Notes: a model not told the origin generated them from the sequence alone. A stretch of DNA of 64,000 nt from Candidatus Kuenenia stuttgartensis (GCA_945906725.1 CAMDRI010000003.1:2436-66435), one strand, 5' to 3'. Counted from the stretch's first letter, positions 1 to 57,197 are shown. Made by a program: numbers and translations.

Positions 1-274
1 AGCGGTGATAAGCAAACGCCTGCCCATCGTCTTCCATGAACTCTCGAATGCTGCCCAAGACACGCTCGATGAAGTGGCTATCGTTCGTGATGCCTTTGCC
101 GAACAACACCGTCGAGTAGAGCGACTTGGTATTGCTCACGATGATGTACTGCGTTCGATCCGCAACGAACAAATGAGCCGACCAGTCCACAAACGGGTTA
201 TCGTCCAGCGGCATCGTTTTCAGCGACCCCGCCTTGATCTTGGTGCAGAGCTTCTGGGAGAGGCGAAGAATCAT
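1..274 (-). CDS. hypothetical protein, 5' part only (gene continues past the left edge)
   Basis: Not in the ORF track because there is no stop inside the window. The reverse-strand ATG at 274..272 gives MILRLSQKLCTKIKAGSLKTMPLDDNPFVDWSAHLFVADRTQYIIVSNTKSLYSTVLFGKGITNDSHFIERVLGSIREFMEDDGQAFAYHR. Codon position 3 is strongly G/C, like neighbouring genes. The ATG overlaps the TGA of the upstream gene (ATGA 274..271). The listed + ORF 5..370 is its antisense shadow. Confidence 0.5.
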   Translation of the reverse strand, partial: MILRLSQKLCTKIKAGSLKTMPLDDNPFVDWSAHLFVADRTQYIIVSNTKSLYSTVLFGKGITNDSHFIERVLGSIREFMEDDGQAFAYHR

Positions 275-1437
275 TTGGATTTGACTCCCCCTGCCGCCCG
301 GATTAGCAACTCCTTTTCCTGCCGTGAAAGTGCCTTGATTGCCAACTCTCTTTTCAGTGCAAGGCTGTGACTCGCCAGTGCCTCCTGATAGACCAAGACG
401 GCGGGTAGTCGGCTGCGGGTGTAACGTGAGGCGATTCCGGCGTTGTGCTGGACCAATCGACGGGGCACGTCATTGCTGATGCCGGTGTAGAGCGAGCCGT
501 CCGCACACCGCAGGAGATAGACAAACCAAATTGTTTCCGGCTGCCCGTTCTTCAACTCCGTCCGCAACTTCTCCACCGCCACTTCTTTCGCTTTGGCTTC
601 GACTTCGACGGTGATCTTTTTACGCCGCCAGCAATCAGGGAAGTCTTTCACGTCGATGAAGTCGTGATGTCGTTCGGGCTTTCGGCCGTCCCAGCCTTCA
701 ATCGGGCTGGAAAGATGGAACATCGGCTCCCGACCCCATGTCGCCAGAGCCTTCTTCGTGGCTTGTTCGACGCTCAGGCTATCGGGATTGCAGCGGTGGT
801 GATGCACGTCGTAGACCAACGGGATGCCGGTTGCCTTGCAGAGTGGTAGCAGATCGGCTGGCGTGTACGTCTTGTCGTCATTCTCAACGGTCAATCGGCT
901 TCGGACGCTCAATGAAAGCCGGTCAAGGTTGCGGGCGAAATCATCGAGAGCCTTTGGCTTATCGCCGTAGGCACCGCCCCCGTGAATGTTGATGACATCG
1001 GCCCCGATCCACTCGGCCACTTCCGCTTGGTATTCAAGCTCCTGCACGGACTTCTCAACCACGTCGAGTCGGGGGGAGTTCATCACCACGAATTGATCGG
1101 GATGGAAGCACGTTCGCAGTTTGTGCTTCTTGACGAACGTGCCGCACTCCTTGAAGCGGCGAATGATCTCGTCGCCATCCGGCAAATCGCCCACGGAATA
1201 TCCGCAGGTTGGATGAGTCTTGATCGGAAGAATTTGGCTGTTGACCCGAAAGCAGCCGATCTTGTTCTCGGCACAGAACTGAAGAGCGGCGAGCAGAGCG
1301 GCGGCATTTTCCAAACAGAGACGGCTCAACTTCGCCAAGGCATCGTGCCGCTTCATTTTGCTGATGGATGTCGCCGTCGTCGTCAGGAATTTGATGGGCT
1401 GGTCCCGAAACAGACAGCAGAGGCCAAGTCGAATCAT
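271..1437 (-). CDS. uvdE: UV damage endonuclease UvdE fused to a C-terminal GIY-YIG nuclease domain (388 aa)
   Basis: ORF 271..1833 trimmed to the ATG at 1437 (MIRLGLCCLFRDQPIKF), which overlaps the tspO stop (ATGA 1437..1434). Roughly the first 300 aa read as UvdE/Uve1 (INIHGGGAYGDK, LTVENDDKTYT, LVYDVHHHRC). The last ~90 aa (IWFVYLLRCADGSLYTGISNDVPRRLVQHN...KRELAIKALS) read as a GIY-YIG (YhbQ/SLX1-type) domain in the same uninterrupted frame. Confidence 0.85.
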   Translation of the reverse strand: MIRLGLCCLFRDQPIKFLTTTATSISKMKRHDALAKLSRLCLENAAALLAALQFCAENKIGCFRVNSQILPIKTHPTCGYSVGDLPDGDEIIRRFKECGTFVKKHKLRTCFHPDQFVVMNSPRLDVVEKSVQELEYQAEVAEWIGADVINIHGGGAYGDKPKALDDFARNLDRLSLSVRSRLTVENDDKTYTPADLLPLCKATGIPLVYDVHHHRCNPDSLSVEQATKKALATWGREPMFHLSSPIEGWDGRKPERHHDFIDVKDFPDCWRRKKITVEVEAKAKEVAVEKLRTELKNGQPETIWFVYLLRCADGSLYTGISNDVPRRLVQHNAGIASRYTRSRLPAVLVYQEALASHSLALKRELAIKALSRQEKELLIRAAGGVKSK

Positions 1438-1838
1438 GGCCTCCCCCAATTCATCGCCGTGATCGACAATTGCAGCACGGTTGCCAACGACACCCAAACA
1501 AAATACGGCACTTGGGCCACGGCTACCCAGCGATAGTGCTTCCAGACGGCGATCATCATCCAGATGATCGTGCCCCAGACGATCAGGATGTCCACCGCCG
1601 CCAGCGGCAAGTTTCGCATTCCGAATTGAATCGGGGTGAAGATCAGGTTGGCGACAAGATTGATGGCGAACGGCAACGCCACAAGCCACGGAACTTTTCG
1701 CCGGATCGCCTGCACGAAAACGAACCCGAAGCTGATGAGGATAATCGGGTAGAGAATCTGCCAGATCAGCCCGATGGTGGCCGGGGCCGGTGTCCAGCTT
1801 GGTTTCGAGAGCGAGTTGTACCATTCCATCCATGTCAT
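1434..1838 (-). CDS. tspO: TspO/MBR family tryptophan-rich sensory protein (134 aa)
   Basis: ORF 1434..1907 trimmed to ATG 1838 (MTWMEWYNSLSKPSWTPAPATIGLIWQILYP). The protein is Trp-rich with five hydrophobic helices, the typical TspO N-terminal pattern. AAGGAAG lies upstream. Confidence 0.85.
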   Translation of the reverse strand: MTWMEWYNSLSKPSWTPAPATIGLIWQILYPIILISFGFVFVQAIRRKVPWLVALPFAINLVANLIFTPIQFGMRNLPLAAVDILIVWGTIIWMMIAVWKHYRWVAVAQVPYFVWVSLATVLQLSITAMNWGRP

Positions 1839-2749: not shown

Positions 2750-3493
2750 TCAACTTGGCTGATATGGATTTTTGGTTCCCTCCCTCTCCGCTTTATCAAT
2801 TGCCATCAGACAGCCGCAATCCTCATCAATCGTCTTAGTTGACTGAGGGTTGCGGCTGTCGGAGTTTGGGAGTGATTCCTCGACTCCATGACCTGCAGTC
2901 TTATCAACCGTCTTCAATGATTGGCGTTGGTTGTTAGAAAAACCGGCAACCATTAGTGCAGCCAACTCAGAATCGCTTTCGCTCGATTCATCATTCGATT
3001 CGTCTGATGTCGTGCTTGTTGAAAGTGGCAACGGGCACATCTGCCGAACAACGGAGCCAAGGTCGTTGAGATCGGCGTGCGTGTAGCGGTCGATGGTCAA
3101 TTCAACGGTGGAGTGCCGCACGAGCTTTTGCATCGCTTTCGCCGAGACTCCGGATCGGCCCAAACGTGAGAGATAGGTGTGACGCAGCGCATGGAAGTCA
3201 GTTTGGCCGATTTCATTCTTGTAATGCAGCATCGAAGATTTGGAACGGATTTCACGCTCCGGTTCGTTGGGGGCATCCGCAATCAAACGCGTGCACGCAG
3301 TTTCGAGGTCTTGCTGAATCAACCTTCCGGACCGCTTCTGCGCGGACCATTTACCCGACCACAGCGGAGCATCGGCTGGAACTTTCAGAATCCACGACTG
3401 CATGACGGTCACGAGTTCCTGAGGCGACGGGATCACATCTCCGCGACGCGCCTTCTCACTTTTTTGCTTTACTGTGGACGACCGGGACTCCAA
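2750..3493 (-). pseudogene. tyrosine recombinase/phage-type integrase, 5'-truncated fragment
   Basis: Contains the box II and catalytic Tyr region (TDFHALRHTYLSRLGRSGVSAKAMQKLVRHSTVELTIDRYTH). The N-terminal SAM-like domain and the box I Arg are missing. The ORF opens on a TTG only ~100 aa before HxxR. A long acidic/Ser-rich tail follows the Tyr. Confidence 0.7.
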
Positions 3494-9312: not shown

Positions 9313-9705
9313 CTATTTCAAGAAGAAATCAGACGGGCCTTTGCAGGTGTAGTACGGATAGACGACGGCTGCGGCCGGCTGGTTCTGGGATGGGTACGTC
9401 AAATTCTTCGGTTGGCGATAGTCGAAAGTGTGATGGTGTTTCGGCCAGTGATAGTTCTCGGGACAGTCATTCGGGTTTTGCGCCCATTCCGGCGGATACG
9501 ACATTGAGTCCGCACCGGCCGGTCCGTCGTAGTACATCGGAGCGGGCATGGCTCCCATCGGACCATGTGGTCCCATTGGACCATTCGCTCCCAGTGAATG
9601 CGGTGCGGGGTTCTGTCCGCGAACAACTGCATGATTCGATTGGCAGCCCACGATCGCCACCATCCCAGCGAACAGAGCACACAACATCCATTGAGACTTC
9701 ATCAT
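9313..9705 (-). CDS. small secreted lipoprotein, Pro/His/Tyr-rich (130 aa)
   Basis: Trimmed to MMKSQWMLCALFAGMVAIVGCQSN, a signal peptide plus lipobox Cys. GGGAGGCGAGGA lies upstream. The C-terminus reads VVYPYYTCKGPSDFFLK. Confidence 0.65.
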   Translation of the reverse strand: MMKSQWMLCALFAGMVAIVGCQSNHAVVRGQNPAPHSLGANGPMGPHGPMGAMPAPMYYDGPAGADSMSYPPEWAQNPNDCPENYHWPKHHHTFDYRQPKNLTYPSQNQPAAAVVYPYYTCKGPSDFFLK

Positions 9706-10009
9706 TCCTCGCCTCCCTGCGAATTTGAGCGATGCACTGACTCGACGACCGTCTGCATCTCGATCGTCGCGGAACTCAGTCCTTCGCAATTGTTATCGAC
9801 CCGCAGGCTCGGCGGATTGCGAGGATTCCTCACAACCGGAAAAGTCAGCCCAGTCCGCGGAATTCCTCGATCTTGCAGCACTTTCCGAGGCCAGATAGAG
9901 TCCGACCCGCTCAGGATTGCCCCACGGCAAGTTCCCGACTTCGCCGCAAACAGCACTCTGCCAGCCACTTGCCACCGACAGAGTGACACTGATCAAAGGA
10001 TTGACCGGT

Positions 10010-10789: not shown

Positions 10790-11224
10790 TCAGGTTGATT
10801 TCTTGCGGATCGCGCGACGAAGCTTGTCCGCGCCGGACGTTTCTTCCGCCGCATCGAGAGATGCCAAGGACCGCGAGACTGCTTCCAGCAGCACTTCCAT
10901 TGCGAACGGTTTCCGCAGGTAGTCGTCGACGCCGAGCATCTCAGCGTAGGCTTTGTGCCGCCCGCCTTCATTGGCGGTGATCATGATGACCTTCGGCGGA
11001 TGCGGCAGACCTTTGAGAAACTCAAGCACCGGAAAGCCGCCCATCTTCGGCATCATCATGTCGGTGATGACCAAGTCCGGAGAAATCGACTCCGCCAACC
11101 GCCGGCCTTCGAGGCCATTTTGGCCCCATTGCACCGCGTAACCAGCGTTTTCCAACACTTTGAGCAGCGTCGAGGCGATCTCGCGGTCATCTTCGATCAA
11201 CAAAATCGTTCGTCCGGCGGGCAT
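10790..11224 (-). CDS. stand-alone CheY-like response regulator receiver (144 aa)
   Basis: Trimmed to ATG 11224 (AAGGAGA upstream). Motifs are [33 protein letters not shown] and DDYLRKPF, so all phospho-acceptor and switch positions are present. There is no output domain. Confidence 0.88.
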
Positions 11225-11284
11225 GGCATTCTCCTTGGCCGAAATTCCTACGGCTTCGAATAGTAGGCCGGCGGGCAAGCGTTC

Positions 11285-12172
11285 TCAAGCACTCTCTTCG
11301 AGCACCAGGCCTTGTTCGCCAATCTCGAACGGCACAATCGTATCGTCACAAGCACTGCCACGATGCTTGGCGACATGCAACGCGCGGCGCATGCGCAACC
11401 CGTCACGAACCTTGCCCATCAGGATGATCGTATTGGCATTCGACAACGAGTCGCCGCTCCCCAACGGTCGGGCCAAGAGATCATCGAGCATGACTTCATG
11501 CGAGGTGTAAAGCAGCGTGCAACAGATTTCTCGATAGTCGTACCGGTGGGCAGCGACGTTGTCGGCTTGCGACCGGAAATGAACACGGAACAAATCGCGA
11601 GCAACCCAATCATCGTCCTTTCGCAGAATCTGATGATAGATGTAGTCGATCACCTGGAACTGAAAGCTGTCGCTGTCTCGCTCGGTCGGTTCGATGCCAT
11701 CGAGCACGCAGCGACGCACTCCATGCACGAAGTTGCCGTAAAAAAACTGCACCGCGCGATCGAGTTTGCGAGCCAACTCCGCGTTCCATTCCTGCCACTC
11801 TTCGACGGAGAGATCGGCTTGAGTGACTCGACGTCCGCTGCGGCGGAACAAGTGCAAGTAGTCGTGTCTCGCGCGATCGCGCTGCCAGACATCCTCGGAG
11901 TCGATGCTGCCTTCAGGCGCGAACTCTCGGAAGCTCCAATCGAACAAACGCCGCGCGTACTCGGCCTGATTCTGCGAATCGCCGCGCGTCGTGAGATCCA
12001 GCACCAGCCCCGGCTCGCCTTCTTGCGTTCGTCCCGCGTGAGCGAATTGCAGCCCAAGCTGTGTCTTGCCAATGCCGGTCGCGCCAACGACCACTGTCAG
12101 AGTGCCAGGCAGCAAGCCTCCGCCCAACATGTCGTCCAAGCGCGGGATGCCAGAGCTGAGGCGAGACGTCAT
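11285..12172 (-). CDS. single-domain KaiC/RecA-superfamily ATPase (295 aa)
   Basis: Trimmed to ATG 12172 ([43 protein letters not shown]). Walker A is GATGIGKT and the Walker B-like motif is RCVLDGIE. This is the KaiC-type opening (GI..LD..LGGG...G). Confidence 0.8.
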
Positions 12173-12186
12173 CGGTTTCCATCCGG

Positions 12187-12870
12187 CTAAAACGCTGGGC
12201 TGCCGGCTTTTTGCGGGGCGACCTGCTTCACGGCAGGAGCCTGTGAGGAAGCCGCACCGGTGCCGGCTCCGATTTCGCGGCGCGATGCGTACCGAATCGG
12301 AAACGAGGGCCACACCGTGTTCGTGACGGCCCCCGCCTCACCCATGATTTTGTCCGGTCCATCAAAAATTCGCTTGGGCCATTTGGAGAAAACCCGTTCG
12401 CTGGTCCATTGCGTGAATCCGAGCCATTGCCGATCCGGTGCCATTCCAAAGAAATTGCTCCGCTCCGATTTGAACCCCATGAACTCACGACCGAGCGGTG
12501 CGGTGTGCAAAGCGGTCAACAGAAACGCCATCGTCACATAGCCGGCCAACACTCCGCAGCCCCAGCGAGCACATTCGTGGAACATGCGATGCACGCTGAT
12601 GTACGAAGGCGACAAATAGTCTGCACCGGCTCTCAATCCCGCCACCGCAGCTCCGAATAATCCCACTAACACGATCAAATCTAGCCGTGCCTGCCAGTAG
12701 TAATTCGATCCGAGCAAGCCGTCACAGATTGGCTCGAAGAGATTCATCGATAAGAGTCCGCCGAGAATCACGCAAATCGCTGTGATCGCCGCACCCCATG
12801 CACCTTCGCCGGCGACGCAGTACGTCACTCCCCCGAAGATCAATAAGAGCAGAATGTCGATGACAGCCAT
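12187..12870 (-). CDS. CvpA-like four-helix membrane protein (227 aa)
   Basis: ATG 12870 is preceded by GAGGAG. The N-terminus [38 protein letters not shown] fits the CvpA family pattern. Four hydrophobic helices are followed by a soluble tail. Confidence 0.7.
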
Positions 12871-12888
12871 GTTGGCTCCTCAGAGTTT

Positions 12889-14751
12889 TTACTTCACAAC
12901 CCGCAGCAACTCGTCGATCGACGTGATGCCTTTCACAACCAGCCGCAAGCCTTCTTCCTGCATGTAGAGCATTCCGCCCTTGCGAGCCTCCGCCTTGAGC
13001 GCCGACAGCGCGGCCTTCTCTCGAATCAGGTCTCGCATGCGATCGTTAATCACCAGCAATTCGTAAACGCCGACTCGGCCACGATAGCCCATGCCGCCGC
13101 AAGTCGGGCACGCGACATTCTCGCCTTCTTTGGGGGGCCGGTAGAGCTTGTCGATCTTTTCTGCGGGGAGGTTGGCTTTCTTCAGAAACTCGGATTTCGG
13201 AACGTACGACTCTTTGCAATCGGGGCAAAGCCGTCGAGCCAATCGTTGAGCGAGAATCGCGCTCAGGGAACTCGACAGCATCGACACATCGACGCCGAGG
13301 TCGATCATGCGGTACAGCGCCGTGATGGCGTCATTCGCGTGTACCGTCGAGAAGACCATGTGGCCGGTGTTCGCCGCCTGGCAAGCAATGTTGGCGGTTT
13401 CGCCATCTCGGATTTCGCCGATCATCACGATGTCCGGATCTTGCCGCAGCACGCTGCGCAGCGAAGTCGCGAAGGTCTGTCCCGCCTTCATGTTGATCTC
13501 GATCTGTGTGACATTCGCCATCTTGTATTCGACGGGGTCTTCGATCGTGATGATGTTCTGTTGAAACGAGTCGATGTCGTTCAGGCAGGCATACAACGTC
13601 GTCGACTTACCGGCACCAGTGGGACCGCAGACCAGCAGCAGACCGTGTGGCTGATGGACGACTTCTTTGAGTTGCTCTTCCAGTTGCTTGCGAAAGCCGA
13701 GGTCGAGCAGCGTGCTGACGGAATTCGATTGATCGAGGATGCGCAGGGTCATTTTCTCGCCGTCGCGAGTTCCTTGCGTGGCAACGCGGAAGTCAATTTC
13801 GCGACCATCGGTCACGGCGCGGAAACTGCCGTCGAGCGACTTGCGCTTCTCGGTGATGTCCATCGCGGCCAGAATTTTGAAGATGTTGATGACGTTATCG
13901 CCAAGCGCGCGGTCAAATGGCTCAACCGAGTACATCACACCGTCCACGCGCAGCCGGACCTGCAGCTCATCTTCTTTCGGTTCGAGATGAATATCCGTTG
14001 CGCGTTTGATGATCGCGTCGTAGACCAACTCCTTTGCCGCCAGGAATCCGCGCGAGTTCTCGACCTGTGACGTGCGGCTGGTGTCGCGGCGGCCGGTCGA
14101 AGTTTTGCCGATGAATTCGATGTCCGGACCGAGCAATTGCTGCTTCATCTTCTTGCCGCCGAGGTGCAACCCCATCCGAGCCAGCGTGCGAAACACGACG
14201 CTCTTGATGTGTTTCCGAGTGAGCAGACGAGCGGAATCCGGCACGCAGGCATTTCGCTCGCGGATGTACAATCCCAGTGGCAGGCCTTGCAGCGAGAGAC
14301 TCAAAAAGAATCCCAGCGAAAATGGCGACATCGACACGCCGACCAGCATTGATGTCAATCCGCCTGCAAAGTACGCCGAGTTCCAAAACTCACTGTTGAC
14401 TTTCAGTGAAGTGGCGTCCTGATTGACCCACTTTCCCAATGCCACCCAGCCAAAAAACAAACCAACGATCGGCACAAACTTCCACAAGCTCAAGTAAAAA
14501 CCGGCTGGTTGCCCCCAAGCTCGATTGCCGCGCATGAACCCGTCGGGGTTCGGCGGAAATCGACTGACGTCGCGAACTGCGGCAGCCGCTGGTTGAGCCG
14601 CAGGAGTGGTCTCTGCCGCCGGTGCGGCATCTTTCGCGGGAGCTGGTTGAGCGAATGACTCGTTCGCGATACCCAACGCCAACAGCACAATGGCGACCAT
14701 CTGCCTCAGCCAGCGCGTTCGTTTTGACTCATTCTCATGAGGTCGCATCAT
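12889..14751 (-). CDS. GspE/PilB-family (type II/IV secretion) ATPase with N-terminal transmembrane module (620 aa)
   Basis: Core motifs are ATDIHLEP, Walker A VCGPTGAGKSTT, IITIEDPVEY, DPDIVMIGEIRD, GHMVFSTVHAN and the tetracysteine CPDC...CPTCGG. Residues 1-165 are signal-like plus three hydrophobic helices. Confidence 0.9.
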   Translation of the reverse strand: MMRPHENESKRTRWLRQMVAIVLLALGIANESFAQPAPAKDAAPAAETTPAAQPAAAAVRDVSRFPPNPDGFMRGNRAWGQPAGFYLSLWKFVPIVGLFFGWVALGKWVNQDATSLKVNSEFWNSAYFAGGLTSMLVGVSMSPFSLGFFLSLSLQGLPLGLYIRERNACVPDSARLLTRKHIKSVVFRTLARMGLHLGGKKMKQQLLGPDIEFIGKTSTGRRDTSRTSQVENSRGFLAAKELVYDAIIKRATDIHLEPKEDELQVRLRVDGVMYSVEPFDRALGDNVINIFKILAAMDITEKRKSLDGSFRAVTDGREIDFRVATQGTRDGEKMTLRILDQSNSVSTLLDLGFRKQLEEQLKEVVHQPHGLLLVCGPTGAGKSTTLYACLNDIDSFQQNIITIEDPVEYKMANVTQIEINMKAGQTFATSLRSVLRQDPDIVMIGEIRDGETANIACQAANTGHMVFSTVHANDAITALYRMIDLGVDVSMLSSSLSAILAQRLARRLCPDCKESYVPKSEFLKKANLPAEKIDKLYRPPKEGENVACPTCGGMGYRGRVGVYELLVINDRMRDLIREKAALSALKAEARKGGMLYMQEEGLRLVVKGITSIDELLRVVK

Positions 14752-32960: not shown

Positions 32961-33033
32961 AAAAGCGGTAGCCTGTCGTGAACGATCGGCGTTGATATCA
33001 TGGCTGCGTCGTTGAAACGCAGTGCCGCGAACT

Positions 33034-33090
33034 AACCCGAAGCGTCAGCGAGGGCGAACTCTGAAGACGCCCTCGCTGATGCTTCGGGTT
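33034..33090. repeat. palindromic repeat element PE-1, copy B (23-bp arms, 11-nt loop)
   Basis: The arms are aacccgaagcgtcagcgagggcg (33034..33056) and cgccctcgctgatgcttcgggtt (33068..33090), with one G/T position. Confidence 0.9.
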
Positions 33091-33168
33091 CCAAGTGGGC
33101 TGCGAATCAGCCGGGCTGATTCTCGTCCGCGCGACGATGCCACGTCCGCGTTGCCACGGAGGCGATTT

Positions 33169-34872
33169 GTGCCGAAGGCCACGTTGCTGGTGATCCAGGG
33201 AGCCGATCAAGGGCTGCGCTTCGAGCTGGATGGCGGCGAGGTCACGCTCGGTCGCGGCGCGCTCAATCCGATTCGGCTGCGAGACGACGAAGTCTCCCGC
33301 ACGCACGCCGCTATCCGCTTCGACGAGTCGGCCGGCAGCTTTTTCATCACCGACCGGAACAGTTCCAACGGCACGTTCGTCAACGGTGAGGCGATTCAGA
33401 CTCGCAAGCTGGTCAGCGGTGATCAAGTCGCCGTCGGAACCACGGCGTTCTTGTTTCAAGAGGTCGCGGCTGTTCTCCCCGCGCGAGCGGCGGATCAACT
33501 CGAAGTGTTCGTCGGCGATGACGCTCGCGAGCGTTCCAGCATCATCAGCGAACTCAGTCAAGAAGTCGGACAACAACTGCTCCGCGACGCGACTTCGATC
33601 ATCAAAGCCAGTTCGACGACGCAGACGCTCGCCAATTTGCAGGTGCTGTATCGCATCACCGAAGAGGCGGTCACGCCAACGCTGTCGCTCGACCAACTGC
33701 TGCACCGCATCCTGGAGTTGACCATTGAAGTCGTCGGAGCCGATCGCGGCTGCGTTCTGGTCAATGACCCGCACACCAGCCAGCTCACACCAAAAGCCTT
33801 CAGCCATCGCCGAGGTTTTGCGCCCGGTAGCCCGATGCCAGTCTCACGCAGCATTGTCGATTACGTTCGGAAGAAAGGGCAAGGGGTCCGTACGTCCGAC
33901 GCGCCGCACGATCAGCGGTTTAGTCAGCAGAGCATCATGCAGGCCGGCATCCGCGAGGCGATGTGCGTGCCGATGCAAGGTCGATACGAACTGATGGGTG
34001 TGCTGTATCTCGACACTGCCACGCCGAGCGATCAGCTTCCGCGCCTCGGCCCGGAAGGCTATCGGTTCACCGAAGAGAAGCTGCATTTGCTCGCCGCGAT
34101 CGGCCGGCAAACGGCGCTCGCGGTCGAGGACCATCGCTTCCAAGACGCCTTCCTTAAAGCCGAACGCTTGGCGGCGATCGGACAGACCATCGCGATTCTC
34201 TCGCACCACATCAAAAACATCCTGCAAGGCGTGCGCGGAGGCAGCTACTTGATCGACATGGGCCTGAAACAACACGACGAAGATCTGATCGGCCGCGGCT
34301 GGAAAATCGTCGAAAAAAACCAAGACCGGATTTATCACCTCGTCATGGACATGCTGAGTTACAGCGCCGAGCGAAAACCGGCGTTGCAGGTCGCGAACCT
34401 GAACGAAGTCGTTCGCGATGTGTGTGAGTTGATGGAACCTCGCGCCGCCGAATGCCAAGTCGAACTGACCTGCAAACTCTCCGATCAAGTGCCCGAGAGC
34501 GCGTTCGATTCCGAAGGGATTCACAGGGCCGTGCTCAATATCGTCACGAACGCGATCGAGGCCGTCGAAGGTACGACAGGCGGCCGAGTCACCGTCCAGA
34601 CCGGCTTTGACACGAAGTCGGATGAGCTGGTTGTGTCGGTCCGTGACAATGGCCCCGGAATCCCGGCCGCTCAGCAGGCGATGCTGTTCAACATTTTCGA
34701 ATCGACGAAAGGCTCACGCGGCACGGGACTCGGCTTGGCCGTGTCGCAGAAGATTATTCGCGAACACGGCGGCGATATCTTCGTCGAAAGCCACGAGGGC
34801 GAAGGAGCAACCTTCCGCCTCGTTCTTGCTCGATTGGAAGACGAAGCTGGCTCGGAGATCGTCAAGCGATGA
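33169..34872 (+). CDS. FHA-GAF-histidine kinase (567 aa)
   Basis: ORF 33022..34872 trimmed to the in-frame GTG 33169, with GGAGG 6 nt upstream. The earlier part is repeat PE-1. FHA: TLGRGALNPIRLRDDEVSRTHAAIRF...ITDRNSSNGTFVNGE. GAF: ADRGCVLVND...MGVLYLD. H-box: ILSHHIKNILQGVRG. HATPase: VRDNGPGIP...GTGLGLAVS. Confidence 0.88.
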   Translation: MPKATLLVIQGADQGLRFELDGGEVTLGRGALNPIRLRDDEVSRTHAAIRFDESAGSFFITDRNSSNGTFVNGEAIQTRKLVSGDQVAVGTTAFLFQEVAAVLPARAADQLEVFVGDDARERSSIISELSQEVGQQLLRDATSIIKASSTTQTLANLQVLYRITEEAVTPTLSLDQLLHRILELTIEVVGADRGCVLVNDPHTSQLTPKAFSHRRGFAPGSPMPVSRSIVDYVRKKGQGVRTSDAPHDQRFSQQSIMQAGIREAMCVPMQGRYELMGVLYLDTATPSDQLPRLGPEGYRFTEEKLHLLAAIGRQTALAVEDHRFQDAFLKAERLAAIGQTIAILSHHIKNILQGVRGGSYLIDMGLKQHDEDLIGRGWKIVEKNQDRIYHLVMDMLSYSAERKPALQVANLNEVVRDVCELMEPRAAECQVELTCKLSDQVPESAFDSEGIHRAVLNIVTNAIEAVEGTTGGRVTVQTGFDTKSDELVVSVRDNGPGIPAAQQAMLFNIFESTKGSRGTGLGLAVSQKIIREHGGDIFVESHEGEGATFRLVLARLEDEAGSEIVKR

Positions 34873-39382: not shown

Positions 39383-39455
39383 CGCACGCGATTCGCGTGC
39401 GATGACGGCGAATCGCACACGAGCCGCGTGCGCCACAAAAGGCGGATCAAAATTC

Positions 39456-42400
39456 ATGATGAGTGATGTCGATGCGTTGTTGTTGCACTCGCCGTTCGGT
39501 TGGCTCGCCGTCCGTTGGCCGGACGGGGATGTTCTGACGGCGAATCGCAAAGCCGCTGAGTTGTGTGGGTGCGTGACCGAGCAGATCGTGGGACGGCCGT
39601 GGTGGGAATTGCTGGAACCCGAATCAGCTCAGCGTCTCTCGGATTGGATCACGCAGTGGCAGCGCGGCGAGTTTCCGGGGGAACGATCCGGCGTCTGGCT
39701 GCATCGTACCGATGAAACGAAGACGCCGATCACGTTGCGCGCGGCCACGCTGTCCGAGGTTGTCTCCACAGTTCACACCCAGGCTCAGCATTTCTTGATC
39801 TTGGAAGATCGCCGCGAAACGCAGGCGCTGGCCGAGCGACTCAACAATGCCGAAGCTCGGCTAGAAGAGACGCAGCGTGTCGCTCGCCTGGGATGGTGGG
39901 AATGGGACATCCAGCATGGTCGGATCGCATGGTCGGATTCGTTGTACGAGGTCATGGGAATTCCGTCAGGCGAATTCGGTGGCACGTTGGAAGCGTTCCT
40001 GGAAGGGGTGCATCCCGACGACCGCGCGGAAATGCGGACGCGATTGGGAGCTACACTGAAACGCGGCGAACAGTTTGTCCATGAGTTTCGGACGCTCGAC
40101 AAGAACGGCACGGTGCGCCATCTGCGATCGCAAGCCAAGTTGTCGCGTGACGAATTTGACTGGCCGATTCGCCTCTACGGCACCAGCCAGGACGTCACCG
40201 CGCGGACGCTGGCAGTGCAGGAACTCATGCAAAGCGAGCAGAAGTATCGAGACCTCGTCGAGACTTCTAACGAACTGATTTGGTCGGTCGACATGCAGGG
40301 GCGGTTCACGTTCGTGAATCAAGCGGTTCGCGAATTCTACGGCTACGAGCCGGAGGAATTGCTCGGCCAAGTCTTCTCCCTGTTGTTGCCGTCGGAACGA
40401 CGGGAACCCGACTGGAAAGTCTTCGAGTCGGTGCTCGCCGGGCAGCGATTGTTCGATTACGAGACCGCGCATCTGCGGAAAGACGGCCGACAGATCAACC
40501 TGAGCTTCAATGCAATTGCCATGCACGATGCGAACGGGCGATTGATCGGAGTGACTGGTACGGCAATCGACATCTCGGAACGCAAGCGGCAACAGGAACT
40601 GCTCCGCGAACGCGAAAGCTGGTTCCGCGCGATCTTCGAGAACGCGCCGCAATGCCTGATGATCCTCTCGCCCGACGGCAAACTGCTGGACATCAACCCG
40701 ACGGGCCGGGAAATCTTCGAGGCGACCGCGGGCCATCATTTTATGGGGAACTCCGTCAGCGACTGGCTTGCGCCGCAGTCGCGATCACAGTTCCACAAGA
40801 CCATCGAAGCGGTGCGCAACGGGGCGGCTCGGTCGTGGCAGGCGCAGATTCACGGCGAGCCGAGTTCGCACGGTTGGCTGGAAGGGCAAATGGTTCCGTT
40901 GCGCGATGCCAACGGACAAATTATTCGCTTGCTGGCGGCCGCTCAAGACGTGACCGCGCGGCGCAAGGCCGACACTCTGCGCGAAGGCGAGCAGCAAGTG
41001 CTGGAGGAAATTGCCTCCGGTCATGACCTGCAACGCGTGCTGCGGACGGTCATCAAGATGCTGGAGATGCAACTCCCCGGCGCGCTGTGTTCGATCTTAC
41101 TGCTGCAAGCGGACACAATGCGTCTGGCCGTCGAGGCCACTTCGCCGATGTCTGAAGAAATCCATCAGCAGCTGGCACAGGTGCCAGTCGTCGTGGGGGC
41201 CCCCTCATTCGCGGATGCGGTCGCCAATGGTCGACGACGCATCGTGGAAGACACCGGCACTGATCCCTCGTGGCGCGGACTCCGCACGCTGGTCGATCGG
41301 TTTCAACTCCGTACCTGCTGGTCGCAACCCATTCGCGGCTTCAGCCGCGACGTGCTGGGAGTGCTGTCGATTTTTTTTCAGTGGCCTCGGTCGCCTGGAA
41401 TGGATGATCTGCAACTGCTCGACACTGGAGCGTATCTTGCTGGCATCGCGATTCATCGCACGCGGGCGGAGCAAGCTCTGCGCGACAGCGAACAACGCTT
41501 CCGCACGCTTTTCGAACATTCGCCCGATGCGATCTTCGTCGAATCACCGACCGGTAGCGTCCTGGATGTGAATCCCGCCGCGTGTGAACTGCACGGCCTC
41601 CCACGCGATCAGCTCATCGGCAAGAACATCCTGGAATTGGTCCCGCCCGGCAATCGCGACGACGTGCGCCGCGACTTTCCAAAGTTGGCGTCCGGTGATC
41701 TGCGGCAGTTGGAAGGCTTCAGTTGGCATGCCGAACGTGGAGCGGTGCCCATCAGTCTGCACGTCAGCCAGACCGAGTACGCATCTCAGCCCGCACTGCT
41801 GTTTCACGTCCGCGATATCAGCGAACGAAAACGAGCCGAAGATAAAGCTCGCGAGGTCGAAGCACAGCTCGCGCACGTCGGCCGACTCAGCTTGATGGGC
41901 GAACTCATGGCAGGCATCTCGCACGAGATCAATCAGCCACTGTTCGCGATTGCCAACTTTGCAAAGGCCTGCGAGAAAACTCTCTCCGACGGCAAGCTCG
42001 ATCAACTCGACAAGGTACTGGAATGGACTCACAAGATCGGCCAGCAAGCCATTCGTGCCGGCGAGATCATCCGCCGCATGCGCGACTTCAGCCGCAAATC
42101 GACGCCAGATCACTCGACGGTCGATGTCGCCGACATAATCCACGAAGCGATCGAACTCATGGCGGCGGAAACGAAGTCGCAGCACATCGACTTAAAGTGC
42201 GATATTCGACCGCCGCACCTGATGGTGCTCGCTGACCGCATCCAGATTGAGCAAACCCTGGTCAACTTGCTCCGCAACGCCTACCGCGCGATGGCCGAGA
42301 ACGCGGTCGGAGATCGGCGCGTCAATATCCGCACGGAATTGGAAGACGGCATGCTGACCGTCTCCGTCCGAGACGGTGGCCACGGCTTCAAAGGAGTCAC

Positions 42401-42569
42401 CCCCGAAGAAATTTTCAACCCGTTCTTCACGACGAAGCAGGACGGACTCGGTCTTGGTCTGACGATCAGCCGCTCGATTATCGAGGCCCATCGCGGCAAG
42501 CTGTGGGCCGTACAGAATTCCGACCTCGGCGCGACGTTTTTGTTCACGCTTCCTGTGGGTCCGATGTAA
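39456..42569 (+). CDS. multi-PAS/GAF sensor histidine kinase, cytoplasmic (1037 aa)
   Basis: It carries several PAS/PAC units (for example RFTFVNQAVREFYGYEPEELLGQ and GVTGTAIDISERK) and a GAF-like segment. The H-box is ISHEINQPLFAI and the HATPase is VRDGGHGF...GLGLGLTISRSI. The start at ATG 39456 is uncertain by a few codons. Confidence 0.9.
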   Translation: MMSDVDALLLHSPFGWLAVRWPDGDVLTANRKAAELCGCVTEQIVGRPWWELLEPESAQRLSDWITQWQRGEFPGERSGVWLHRTDETKTPITLRAATLSEVVSTVHTQAQHFLILEDRRETQALAERLNNAEARLEETQRVARLGWWEWDIQHGRIAWSDSLYEVMGIPSGEFGGTLEAFLEGVHPDDRAEMRTRLGATLKRGEQFVHEFRTLDKNGTVRHLRSQAKLSRDEFDWPIRLYGTSQDVTARTLAVQELMQSEQKYRDLVETSNELIWSVDMQGRFTFVNQAVREFYGYEPEELLGQVFSLLLPSERREPDWKVFESVLAGQRLFDYETAHLRKDGRQINLSFNAIAMHDANGRLIGVTGTAIDISERKRQQELLRERESWFRAIFENAPQCLMILSPDGKLLDINPTGREIFEATAGHHFMGNSVSDWLAPQSRSQFHKTIEAVRNGAARSWQAQIHGEPSSHGWLEGQMVPLRDANGQIIRLLAAAQDVTARRKADTLREGEQQVLEEIASGHDLQRVLRTVIKMLEMQLPGALCSILLLQADTMRLAVEATSPMSEEIHQQLAQVPVVVGAPSFADAVANGRRRIVEDTGTDPSWRGLRTLVDRFQLRTCWSQPIRGFSRDVLGVLSIFFQWPRSPGMDDLQLLDTGAYLAGIAIHRTRAEQALRDSEQRFRTLFEHSPDAIFVESPTGSVLDVNPAACELHGLPRDQLIGKNILELVPPGNRDDVRRDFPKLASGDLRQLEGFSWHAERGAVPISLHVSQTEYASQPALLFHVRDISERKRAEDKAREVEAQLAHVGRLSLMGELMAGISHEINQPLFAIANFAKACEKTLSDGKLDQLDKVLEWTHKIGQQAIRAGEIIRRMRDFSRKSTPDHSTVDVADIIHEAIELMAAETKSQHIDLKCDIRPPHLMVLADRIQIEQTLVNLLRNAYRAMAENAVGDRRVNIRTELEDGMLTVSVRDGGHGFKGVTPEEIFNPFFTTKQDGLGLGLTISRSIIEAHRGKLWAVQNSDLGATFLFTLPVGPM

Positions 42570-42714: not shown

Positions 42715-43647
42715 TTGACCTCCGCGACTGATACTGCCGCACCGCCGACTCTTTTGAATCTCAATGGCACTCCGATCGCCGACACGTTCGCCGAAGCGTT
42801 TCCGATCACCGCCACGCGACTGATCATCACCGCTGCAACCGAGGCTTGGGCACGGACGGCGGCCAGTGAACTCTGCGGCTTCGCTACCAGCGTGATCGCC
42901 TGCGACTGCGAAGCGGCACTCGAACGCGCGATCGCCGCAGACGACACGCTCGACGGTCGTCCGGGAGTCAGCGTGCTGCTGTTCGCGTTCAGTCGCGACG
43001 CTCTGCAAAAGGCAGCCACGGAACGAGTCGGTCAATGCGTGCTGACTTGCCCCACGACAGCCTGCTATGACGGTCTTCTCGGAACGCCGCGTGACAAACA
43101 AATCACCGTCGGCGGTCAACTGCGATTCTTCGGCGACGGCTTTCAAGCCTCGAAGAAACTCGGCACACGCCGCTTCTGGCGGATTCCGGTCATGGATGGC
43201 GAGTTCGTTTGCGAAGACCGCATCGGCACGATCAAAGGGGTCGCCGGTGGCAACTTGTTGATCTGCGCCGTTAATCAAACTCAAGCGTTGCTTGCCGCCG
43301 AATCTGCGGCGATCGCGATGCGGGAAATTGCCGATGTCGCCCTCCCCTTCCCTGGTGGCATCGTTCGAGCTGGCAGCAAAGTCGGCTCGCGGTACAAGAA
43401 ATTGAAGGCCAGTACCAACGACGCCTACTGCCCGACTCTGACCGCCGTCACGCGCAGCGAACTACCGCCCGGCACTGGTGCCGTCTACGAATTGGTCGTC
43501 GATGGACTTTCCGCCGATGCAGTGCGGTCCGCGATGCTCGCGGGATTGCACGCAGCGTCACGCTGCTCCGGCCTGACGCTCATCACGGCCGGCAACTACG
43601 GTGGCAGACTGGGACCGCACCATTTCTATTTGCGCGAGTTGTTATGA
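42715..43647 (+). CDS. ftr: formylmethanofuran--tetrahydromethanopterin N-formyltransferase (Ftr/FhcD homologue), 310 aa
   Basis: There is a TTG start at 42715 and no in-frame ATG near the N-terminus. The motifs PIADTFAEAFPITATRLIITA, GFATSVIACDCEA, DGRPGVSVLLFA, GQCVLTCPTTA, FFGDGFQ, RIPVMDGEF, GVAGGN, PFPGGIVRAGSKVGSRYKKLKASTN and ITAGNYGGRLG are collinear with Ftr. Confidence 0.88.
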   Translation: MTSATDTAAPPTLLNLNGTPIADTFAEAFPITATRLIITAATEAWARTAASELCGFATSVIACDCEAALERAIAADDTLDGRPGVSVLLFAFSRDALQKAATERVGQCVLTCPTTACYDGLLGTPRDKQITVGGQLRFFGDGFQASKKLGTRRFWRIPVMDGEFVCEDRIGTIKGVAGGNLLICAVNQTQALLAAESAAIAMREIADVALPFPGGIVRAGSKVGSRYKKLKASTNDAYCPTLTAVTRSELPPGTGAVYELVVDGLSADAVRSAMLAGLHAASRCSGLTLITAGNYGGRLGPHHFYLRELL

Positions 43648-56250: not shown

Positions 56251-56374
56251 AGGCTGAGCGGTGAAGCTCGTCGACTCTTGAAAAACCTCCGAAGTTGTCG
56301 ACTGCACAATCCCACAATCCGGACAAAAAATGATTGTCACCGGCGGCATGCCTCAAATTCGTGACCTAGTTTGA

Positions 56375-57197
56375 AGATGGGTCCCTCCCAAATCGGCGAT
56401 CGTGGTCAGGCCGAATGATGGCCGCTTTGGACCACCGAGGATTCCATCGCCTCACGGTGACCAGGAATTGTCGCTGTTTTTCGCACGGGCGATGGGGAAC
56501 AAAACGGCCGCGCTGATTGTCAAAGCAACCGCCATACTTTCTCCAGGAAGAGGGTTCTACATCCCTCCTGGGAGTGGACTCACCTGTCCGCTGTTGCCAC
56601 TCGTGATCGACGAATTGACTTGAGGCAATCTGGTCCTCAACGGCGTCGGCTCCGACAACTACAAATACAACAGCAAGAGCAACGGGAATGACACAGTGAC
56701 CAGTGGCACGGACGGCATTAAAGAGGTCAACTTTGTATCCTGGCGGAGACAGCAGCGTTCCGTCCGGCAATCGCGGGACCATCGATAGCGGCCCATCGGG
56801 CAACAGCACGGCCGATCTGTCACGACAGATTCGCCATGGCCCCAACGAAGCCGATTTGGTGCATTTCGGTGGCAAAACTCAGATCCCCTCGAGCGGCTTG
56901 ATGCCGGTCAACGGCGACACAGGTCTGAGCGCCGGCATCAAGGACGATCTCGATGCGATCATCGGACAACCGCGAGCCATCGCTGTCTATCGCTCTGTCG
57001 CCGGTCCCGGAAACAACGCCACCTTTCAAATCTGCAAGTTCGTTGGCATTCGGGCTCTGTATGTGAAGCTCACCGGCAGTCCGAGTCAGAAGATGGCCAT
57101 CATCCAACCCGCGCCCGTGTTTTCTGGCACGATCACCAGCACGCCCGGAGCGATGCAGTCGAATTCGATCATGTCTCCGCTGAAGCGGATCCACTGA
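56375..57197 (+). pseudogene. TadG-like (Flp/Tad pilus-associated) protein remnant: N-terminally truncated, in-frame TGA, +1 frameshift
   Basis: Frame A reads ...QELSLFFARAMGNKTAALIVKATAIL...LLPLVIDELT-TGA(56621..56623)-GNLVLNGVGSDNYKYNSKSNGNDTVTSGTDGIKEVNFV. After a 1-nt shift near 56736..56740, frame B reads PGGDSSVPSGNRGTIDSG...AVYRSVAGPGNNATFQICKFVGIRALYVKLTGS. The FFAR.LG...A.A and G.GNNA.F.I..F motifs are TadG-like. The open frame begins only at 56375, so the Tad_N membrane anchor is absent. Confidence 0.55.

Follow-up and report, generated by a model that had tools for sequence, protein, structure and literature searches.

The window analysed here is a stretch of 64,000 nucleotides (nt) from Candidatus Kuenenia stuttgartensis (GCA_945906725.1 CAMDRI010000003.1:2436-66435), and our subject is a block of four co-directional minus-strand genes at positions 10790-14751, encoding an ATPase of the secretion superfamily, a CvpA-like membrane protein, a KaiC-like P-loop protein and a stand-alone receiver (Table 1). 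An earlier note on this DNA had read the block as a single operon built on archaellum-motor logic. Its four open reading frames (ORFs) and the gaps of 18, 14 and 60 nt between them were reproduced exactly, and their domains match its description. The block is best read, however, as two evolutionarily separable modules, one formed by the ATPase and the CvpA-like protein and the other by the KaiC-like protein and the receiver.

Table 1. Features of the four-gene block, in window positions.
Feature	Position	Strand	Product	Basis
ATPase gene	12889-14751	-	620 aa	
ATPase, N-terminal membrane domain	14041-14751	-	residues 1-237	hydropathy, alignment
ATPase, T2SSE core (N2 + C-terminal ATPase), PilB/GspE extension-ATPase type	12889-14040	-		Pfam, PDB
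CvpA-like membrane protein gene (divergent CvpA family, inner membrane)	12187-12870	-	227 aa	homologues, AlphaFold2 (AF2), synteny
KaiC-like gene (single-domain P-loop protein)	11285-12172	-	295 aa, start MTSRL	PF06745, PDB profile, Foldseek
Receiver gene	10790-11224	-	144 aa	

A motif resembling a ribosome-binding site lies ahead of each of the four genes, no terminator-like site was found on the minus strand within the block, and from these signals the four genes are probably co-transcribed in this genome. The start listed for the KaiC-like gene coincides with the start position of its homologues in the alignment; a longer ORF, beginning with GTG at 12313, would overlap the upstream gene. 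Pfam scans of ~49 window ORFs gave no match to T2SSF, Secretin, Peptidase_A24 or N_methyl and no second T2SSE, and tblastn of the window with E. coli HofC and PpdD, a Tad-type T2SSF and a DUF1559 pilin returned nothing, which bears out the earlier statement that no GspF/PilC, secretin, prepilin peptidase or intact pilin gene is visible in the 64 kb. The TadG-like remnant placed by the same note at 56.4 kb was not confirmed: the minus-strand ORFs at 56366-57194 have no pilus-related match even at E ≤ 0.5. Nor does the window contain pilT, and neither che genes nor kaiA or kaiB were seen in the Pfam scans.

The ATPase and its CvpA-like neighbor

The ATPase matches Pfam T2SSE with 385.6 bits over residues 240-617, and its translation contains GPTGAGKST, CPDC and RCVLDGIE. 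Its Walker A and Walker B motifs, its Asp and His boxes and its tetracysteine Zn motif are each intact; of these the earlier note had described all but Walker B for this 620-aa protein. Absent from that note is the N-terminal part, residues 1-237, which consists of a signal peptide and a membrane domain with three hydrophobic helices. The signal peptide (A-x-A|Q site) is followed by a variable Ala/Pro-rich linker and a short conserved motif, [FY]PP.P..F[FY]RGN, predicted to be periplasmic. A transmembrane (TM) helix comes next, then a cytosolic loop, again conserved, then a hairpin of hydrophobic residues and, finally, a conserved PLGLY..ERN..VP linker into the T2SSE core. The domain is conserved in an alignment of 22 loci and one fusion protein (see below), has no match in the PDB, and occupies the place of the N1 domain of GspE/PilB, which the window ATPase does not have.

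Against the PDB, residues 238-620 align over 380 residues with the extension ATPases PilB (320 bits), GspE (315-317 bits) and PilF (315 bits), and with PilT at only ~125 bits. The core is 68-99% identical across the Planctomycetaceae loci. The protein lies below the NCBIfam equivalog cutoffs for GspE (TIGR02533, 444 vs 630 bits) and PilB (TIGR02538, 421.5 vs 675.65 bits), while the FlaI/ArlI model (NF058587) gives a partial match of 61.8 bits, the cutoff being 550. On profile scores the ATPase is thus of the bacterial PilB/GspE type, and not a FlaI/ArlI. The ATPases of loci L011, L013 and L028 are 91-99% identical to it; two of these metagenome-assembled genomes are labelled “Candidatus Kuenenia stuttgartiensis” and one “Dehalococcoidia,” which probably reflects wrong binning or labelling of contigs from Planctomycetaceae.

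The neighboring 227-aa protein has four TM helices in its AF2 model (predicted local distance difference test, pLDDT, 76), and homologues at ~50-55% identity are assigned to PF02674/Colicin_V and carry the NCBI name “CvpA family protein,” in keeping with the earlier description of a four-helix CvpA-like membrane protein. Its C-terminal domain is conserved, with the motifs PDRQWLGF and SFPIRYAxRR and a terminal F, and profile and fold searches of the PDB with the protein found nothing. We collected loci anchored on the CvpA-like gene from one genome per GTDB species, among them Gimesia, Schlesneria and Planctomicrobium. Of 76 Planctomycetaceae loci, 73 have the ATPase gene immediately upstream on the same strand, with a median gap of ~80 nt. 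No other gene family is co-conserved with the pair, the next commonest occurring in 19/80 loci, and a conserved third gene 3' of the CvpA-like gene was considered and rejected: none exists. As a separate observation, a conserved gene of ~190 aa (MGLFDFFSR...PRCDHYSFAHVVLR...) stands between the ATPase and CvpA-like genes in 11 loci only (L032, at 9365-9943, and L034, L036, L037, L038, L040, L042, L044, L045, L050 and L082); its product has no Pfam or NCBIfam match.

In one natural protein the two are fused. P0383, a protein of 757 aa, is composed of Colicin_V (residues 7-133; 33.6 bits on PF02674), the membrane domain and T2SSE, in that order. Its N-terminal part, in which the APDRQWLG motif is found, matches the hidden Markov model of the window's CvpA-like family (E = 2.3e-24), and the CvpA part stands in the place of the signal peptide and linker, just before the first TM helix. 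The C-terminus of E. coli CvpA is predicted to be periplasmic and partner-binding (10.1101/2020.09.25.314492), which makes the order of P0383 topologically coherent; taken together, the fusion order and the E. coli topology would place both the C-terminal domain of the CvpA-like protein and the N-terminal motif of the ATPase on the periplasmic side. From adjacency and fusion, the CvpA-like protein is predicted to be a conserved partner of the ATPase.

Catalytic decay and the pilT neighborhood

A word-indexed homologue search with the N-terminal domain of the ATPase gave 6 fragments only, and an exhaustive phmmer search with the membrane domain as query was used instead, yielding 271 representative clusters. 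Full-length members from this search are 555-690 aa long with the domain at the N-terminus, and a C-terminal T2SSE domain is present in 10/10 of those sampled. In nearly every locus looked at, the family that this membrane domain delimits was paired with CvpA. The catalytic motifs (Walker A, Asp box, Walker B, His box) are intact in 59 of 60 Planctomycetaceae loci and in 7 of 50 full-length representatives of the family; the Walker A Lys, Walker B Glu and His box are lost in the other 43, the fusion and five divergent loci included. The Zn-binding CxxC...CxxC motif is kept in 40 of these 43. Degenerate members, among them those of L172-L176 and the proteins P0269, P0279, P0289, P0378, P0383 and P0393, are predicted from their motifs to be pseudo-ATPase scaffolds.

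The divergent members whose loci we looked up (n = 5) are 24-37% identical to the window ATPase, and all five share the gene order HisF, a PilT-type ATPase of ~385 aa, and the membrane-anchored T2SSE protein; in 4/5 a Colicin_V gene (~210 aa) comes next, often with overlapping stop and start codons between the genes. The anchored ATPase cores at these loci are catalytically degenerate and stand beside an intact pilT: the PilT products are 49-67% identical to NCBIfam-validated PilT, score 385 bits on the PilT model (cutoff 319) and have intact Walker motifs. PilT is also encoded immediately upstream of the ATPase in 6 Planctomycetaceae loci, and the ATPase/CvpA module appears to have lain ancestrally beside pilT. 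A Gimesia-type pilT at a distance of 9.5 kb was rejected as linkage, with housekeeping genes intervening. Since divergent positional orthologues of the ATPase stand between pilT and cvpA, a type-IV-filament system (pilus or endopilus) is the most likely setting for the module.

A plainer explanation is that the ATPase is simply the PilB/GspE of this lineage, acting on a PilC/GspF platform encoded elsewhere, and that its CvpA-like neighbor has no motor role. The equal similarity of the core to PilB, GspE and PilF agrees with this, as do the adjoining pilT in several lineages and locus L072, where a HofC-like gene lies divergently adjacent to the ATPase. In Planctopirus limnophila, moreover, canonical T2SS (type II secretion system)-type operons of the order E/PilT/E/F exist, with ~10 “T2SS protein E” paralogues elsewhere (PMC10632474). 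What tells against it is that the ATPase-CvpA adjacency persists while all other neighbors change, that stop and start codons overlap in the divergent loci, that one protein joins the two, and that most members of the family have a dead core yet keep the CvpA partner. We therefore hold the plainer explanation to be unlikely, though it is the strongest of the competing accounts.

The KaiC-like protein and the receiver

The 295-aa protein scores 69.4 bits on PF06745 (gathering cutoff 26.6), and carries a Walker A (GATGIGKT) and a Walker B-like motif; at the positions of the catalytic Glu-Glu of KaiC, the alignment has Thr/Ser. A profile built from 18 members finds, in the PDB, cyanobacterial KaiC at 1e-23, PH0186 at 6e-9, PH0284 and SSO2452 at ~1e-5, and RadA at 4e-5. 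With the AF2 model (pLDDT 71) as the query, the best 50 Foldseek hits are all KaiC, led by its CI and CII domains at E ~1e-11, and FlaH/ArlH is absent both from these and from the best 60 hits by sequence in the PDB. Alignment with KaiC is confined to residues ~3-90 and 247-292, the ~150 residues between being family-specific. The scores on NCBIfam models are low: 55.4 bits for KaiC (PRK09302, cutoff 408), 41-51 for archaeal KaiC-like models, 23.9 for RadA/Sms (TIGR00416, cutoff 403; Walker A region only), 20-30 for the RadB and RadA models, and 18.1 for ArlH (NF052589, E = 0.0018, cutoff 215). The earlier assignment to a single-domain KaiC/RecA-like ATPase family is thus upheld by PF06745 and the RecA-like fold, and the scores on the ArlH and RadA/Sms models lie far below their cutoffs. 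As judged by these profiles, this is a distinct single-domain KaiC-superfamily protein, neither ArlH nor RadA, and probably a signalling or nucleotide-switch protein.

Homologues are numerous (>4227), the top 120 being 65-97% identical, and they mostly lie among unrelated housekeeping genes. Where the CvpA-like identity to the window protein is at least 66%, which we take as the window's clade (66-93%), the KaiC-like gene follows immediately 3' of the CvpA-like gene in 17/17 loci, with gaps of 2-183 nt; in the 53 more distant Planctomycetaceae loci it does so in none. Seen from the other side, the ATPase and CvpA-like genes lie upstream in 5 of the 66 KaiC-anchored metagenomic loci that had enough upstream sequence in the scan. 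Six homologues at 66-85% identity have unrelated neighbors on contigs up to Mb scale, and no KaiC-like gene occurs in the five divergent pilT-ATPase-cvpA loci. Among the neighbors that do recur, a D-Ser-dehydratase-like gene occurs in 26 loci, a pair of a hemE-like gene, so labelled from a reading of a sequence motif only, and an oxidase gene in 14 and 12, and TruD in 6. The four genes together are thus not syntenic outside the immediate clade, an outcome that the earlier note had named as refuting its idea; the KaiC-like gene appears to be orthologous to a planctomycete gene that is highly conserved and usually stands alone, and, on gene order, its link is clearly dispensable for the ATPase-CvpA module.

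The receiver scores 83.8 bits on Response_reg (PF00072), covering 110 of the 111 positions in that profile, and EDD, the aspartate of TD(MMMP), ITA and RKP can be read in its translation, so that it is, as previously described, a stand-alone receiver with its phospho-acceptor positions intact. It comes after the KaiC-like gene in 13/16 loci of the window's clade, and does so in L005 and L006 although the ATPase and CvpA-like genes are absent there. From its distribution, the receiver tracks the KaiC-like gene and not the ATPase, and its link with the KaiC-like gene seems confined to the window's clade. L005 has, in addition, an intact integrase directly upstream of the KaiC-like gene. Two sensor kinases are encoded elsewhere on the plus strand of the window, one at 33022-34872 (FHA-GAF-HATPase_c, no HisKA detected) and one at 39402-42569 (four PAS domains, GAF, HisKA and HATPase_c); both are candidates for the kinase that acts on this orphan receiver.

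These distributions bear directly on the idea that the block encodes one machine of four parts, in which the KaiC-like protein would bind and control the ATPase hexamer in the way ArlH acts on ArlI, the CvpA-like protein would take the place of ArlJ, and the receiver would bring in a phospho-signal in the manner of CheY. Two observations weigh against dismissing the four-gene association as pure happenstance: the unbroken arrangement within the clade, and the order ATPase, CvpA-like, KaiC-like (followed by DprA) in L102, one of the five KaiC-anchored loci above. L102 belongs to a distant lineage (identities of 67% for the KaiC-like protein, 45% for the CvpA-like protein and 70% for the ATPase core), and its ATPase nests with a Schlesneria-like clade far from that of the window, so either the association has two origins or it is ancestral and was lost many times; a second chance juxtaposition would be unlikely, and a regulatory link from the KaiC-like protein to the ATPase and CvpA-like proteins is therefore conceivable. 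The tight spacing without an internal terminator fits a four-part machine, as does the missing catalytic Glu-Glu of the KaiC-like protein: ArlH is a nucleotide-binding switch and not a hydrolase. On the other side stand the absence of the link from all 53 distant CvpA-anchored and 61 of 66 KaiC-anchored loci, orthologues of the KaiC-like protein as close as 85% identity beside unrelated genes, scores far below the ArlH and FlaI cutoffs, the absence of FlaH from the best PDB matches by sequence or fold, a receiver that follows the KaiC-like gene instead of the ATPase, and a window without che genes. The archaellum-motor logic is on this evidence improbable.

More improbable still is that the KaiC-like protein is a RecA-superfamily factor of DNA transactions, related to RadA/RadB, whose position marks a link to competence or DNA uptake. 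In its favor, the gene immediately after the KaiC-like gene in L102 is DprA (L102:6976-8217; DNA_processg_A, 244 bits), an SNF2 helicase follows the KaiC-like gene in L007 and L008, and some homologues bear public names such as “recombinase RecA” or “RAD55 family ATPase.” Against it, the scores on the RadA/Sms, RadB and RadA models are low, the PDB profile prefers KaiC to RadA by many orders of magnitude, and the protein has no DNA-binding domain. DprA as a general explanation was rejected: it occurs in a single locus and does not recur among the KaiC-anchored loci, where the recurrent neighbors are housekeeping genes.

Three further window genes are recorded here. A 520-aa ORF at 271-1833 (minus strand) has a UV-endonuclease domain (UvdE, 216 bits) and, at its C-terminus, a GIY-YIG nuclease domain (53 bits). 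A 247-aa ORF at 2750-3493 (minus strand) covers only the C-terminal part of a phage integrase (profile positions 65-169 of 172), and may be a truncated integrase or the scar of a mobile element. The plus-strand gene at 42715-43647 encodes a formylmethanofuran–tetrahydromethanopterin formyltransferase (FTR and FTR_C, ~193-195 bits each), which we take to belong to a tetrahydromethanopterin-linked C1 pathway.

Interpretation and likeness to known systems

The earlier note had also suggested an uncharacterised membrane-embedded ATPase machine, and this part of it stands, for the ATPase and CvpA-like pair and not for the four-part version, on the conserved adjacency, the membrane anchor of the ATPase itself and the fusion. 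We read the pair, with a probability of roughly 0.58, as a membrane-integral ring of traffic ATPases that is coupled to the envelope through the CvpA-like protein and belongs to a system of the type-IV-filament kind. The first module would be a hexameric ATPase of the PilB/GspE class that has lost N1, the domain for docking to GspL/PilM, and uses a signal peptide and three-helix domain of its own to stay in the cytoplasmic membrane, where it would work with the four-TM CvpA-family protein. The periplasmic domain of the latter and the periplasmic motif of the ATPase may make up a complex in the membrane by which ATP hydrolysis in the cytoplasm is coupled to the envelope; the genes for pilins, secretin and any PilC/GspF platform would then lie elsewhere. 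In the second module the KaiC-like protein is joined by a single-domain response regulator specific to the lineage, and this pair would have landed 3' of the first module in this clade.

A number of observations count against this reading. The window's CvpA-like protein has no direct match in Pfam (E ≤ 0.01) or NCBIfam and falls below every Colicin_V threshold, and its orthologues, at 27.5-28.3 bits, stay under the PF02674 gathering cutoff of 29.3. L064, L073 and L076 have the CvpA-like gene without the ATPase, and L174, one of the divergent loci, has no CvpA gene. The fusion P0383 is known from a single metagenomic contig of 3.2 kb, as a cluster of one member. The proposed contact of the ATPase with the CvpA-like protein is drawn from synteny and the fusion, and the suggested tie to pili from the gene neighborhood; L072 is the only one of 80 related loci with a PilC-like gene near the module.

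The “T2SS protein E” genes of P. limnophila, about ten in number, include those of an essential operon in which T2SS-E, a twitching-motility protein, a second T2SS-E and a T2SS protein are followed by six planctomycete-specific genes (PMC10632474); canonical platform genes can thus lie elsewhere in genomes of this kind. In the same species, Plim_0082 is a “T2SS protein E” that is not essential and has restricted conservation, and Plim_0083, which follows it, a planctomycete-only hypothetical protein (PMC10632474, supplementary file 3); the two are a candidate orthologue of the module. Pili-like fibres emanating from the crateriform structures of planctomycetes bind dextran and have been implicated in polysaccharide binding (PMC5394234), and the module is a possible motor or scaffold for such fibres.

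A broader proposal, which we put forward only tentatively, is that the Planctomycetota possess a hitherto unrecognised membrane machine related to type-IV filaments. In it a self-anchored ring, catalytically active in the Planctomycetaceae and a pseudo-ATPase scaffold beside PilT elsewhere, and a CvpA-family protein would jointly replace GspL/PilM as the anchor and possibly GspF/PilC as the platform, with the KaiC-like protein, as a nucleotide switch, and the receiver recruited as regulators in some lineages. The function of CvpA itself has been described as largely unknown (10.1101/2020.09.25.314492). The module offers a candidate, testable partner for it, and, if the broader proposal is true, the first mechanistic one. 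GspE/PilB traffic ATPases are described as soluble hexamers recruited to PilC/GspF through N-terminal docking domains; a membrane-integral, CvpA-partnered family departs from this, and the dead cores of most members, still beside PilT, are a second departure from the textbook design. In the literature on CvpA with GspE, PilB or PilT, on membrane-anchored GspE/PilB and on planctomycete pili, we found no precedent. The archaellum-like pairing with a KaiC-superfamily protein is specific to the lineage and not a conserved design.

Set beside GspE, PilB and PilF, the window ATPase has the same N2 and C-terminal core (~315-320 bits) with its catalytic and Zn motifs intact, and in several lineages the same pilT neighbor. 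Unlike them, it has a signal peptide and three-helix membrane domain where an N1 or MshEN-type domain would be, its constant partner is a CvpA-family protein and not GspF, PilC or GspL, neither pilins nor a secretin are found nearby, and most of its wider family are predicted pseudo-ATPases. With the archaellum, in which ArlI works with ArlH and ArlJ and CheY signals through adaptors, the block has in common, in this genome, that the gene of a secretion-superfamily ATPase adjoins genes for a single-domain protein of the KaiC superfamily, for a polytopic membrane protein and for a receiver; it differs in that the membrane protein is of the CvpA family and not T2SSF/ArlJ, there are no archaellins, and the association is not conserved. 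The archaella of Chloroflexota, in contrast to this locus, carry bona fide arl genes (PMC12488501). As for E. coli CvpA (PF02674), relatives of the window protein match positions 1-126 of the 144 in that profile, whereas the longer C-terminal domain, PDRQWLGF..SFPIRYAxRR..F, is specific to the family, and the CvpA-like gene is coupled genomically to a T2SSE protein, for which we found no counterpart reported for CvpA in the literature searched. The KaiC-like protein, finally, shares with KaiC, PH0186, PH0284 and SSO2452 a RecA-like fold, the Walker A motif and a C-terminal K-x-R-G-S motif, and departs from circadian KaiC, a double-domain protein, in having a single domain and Thr/Ser for the catalytic Glu-Glu.

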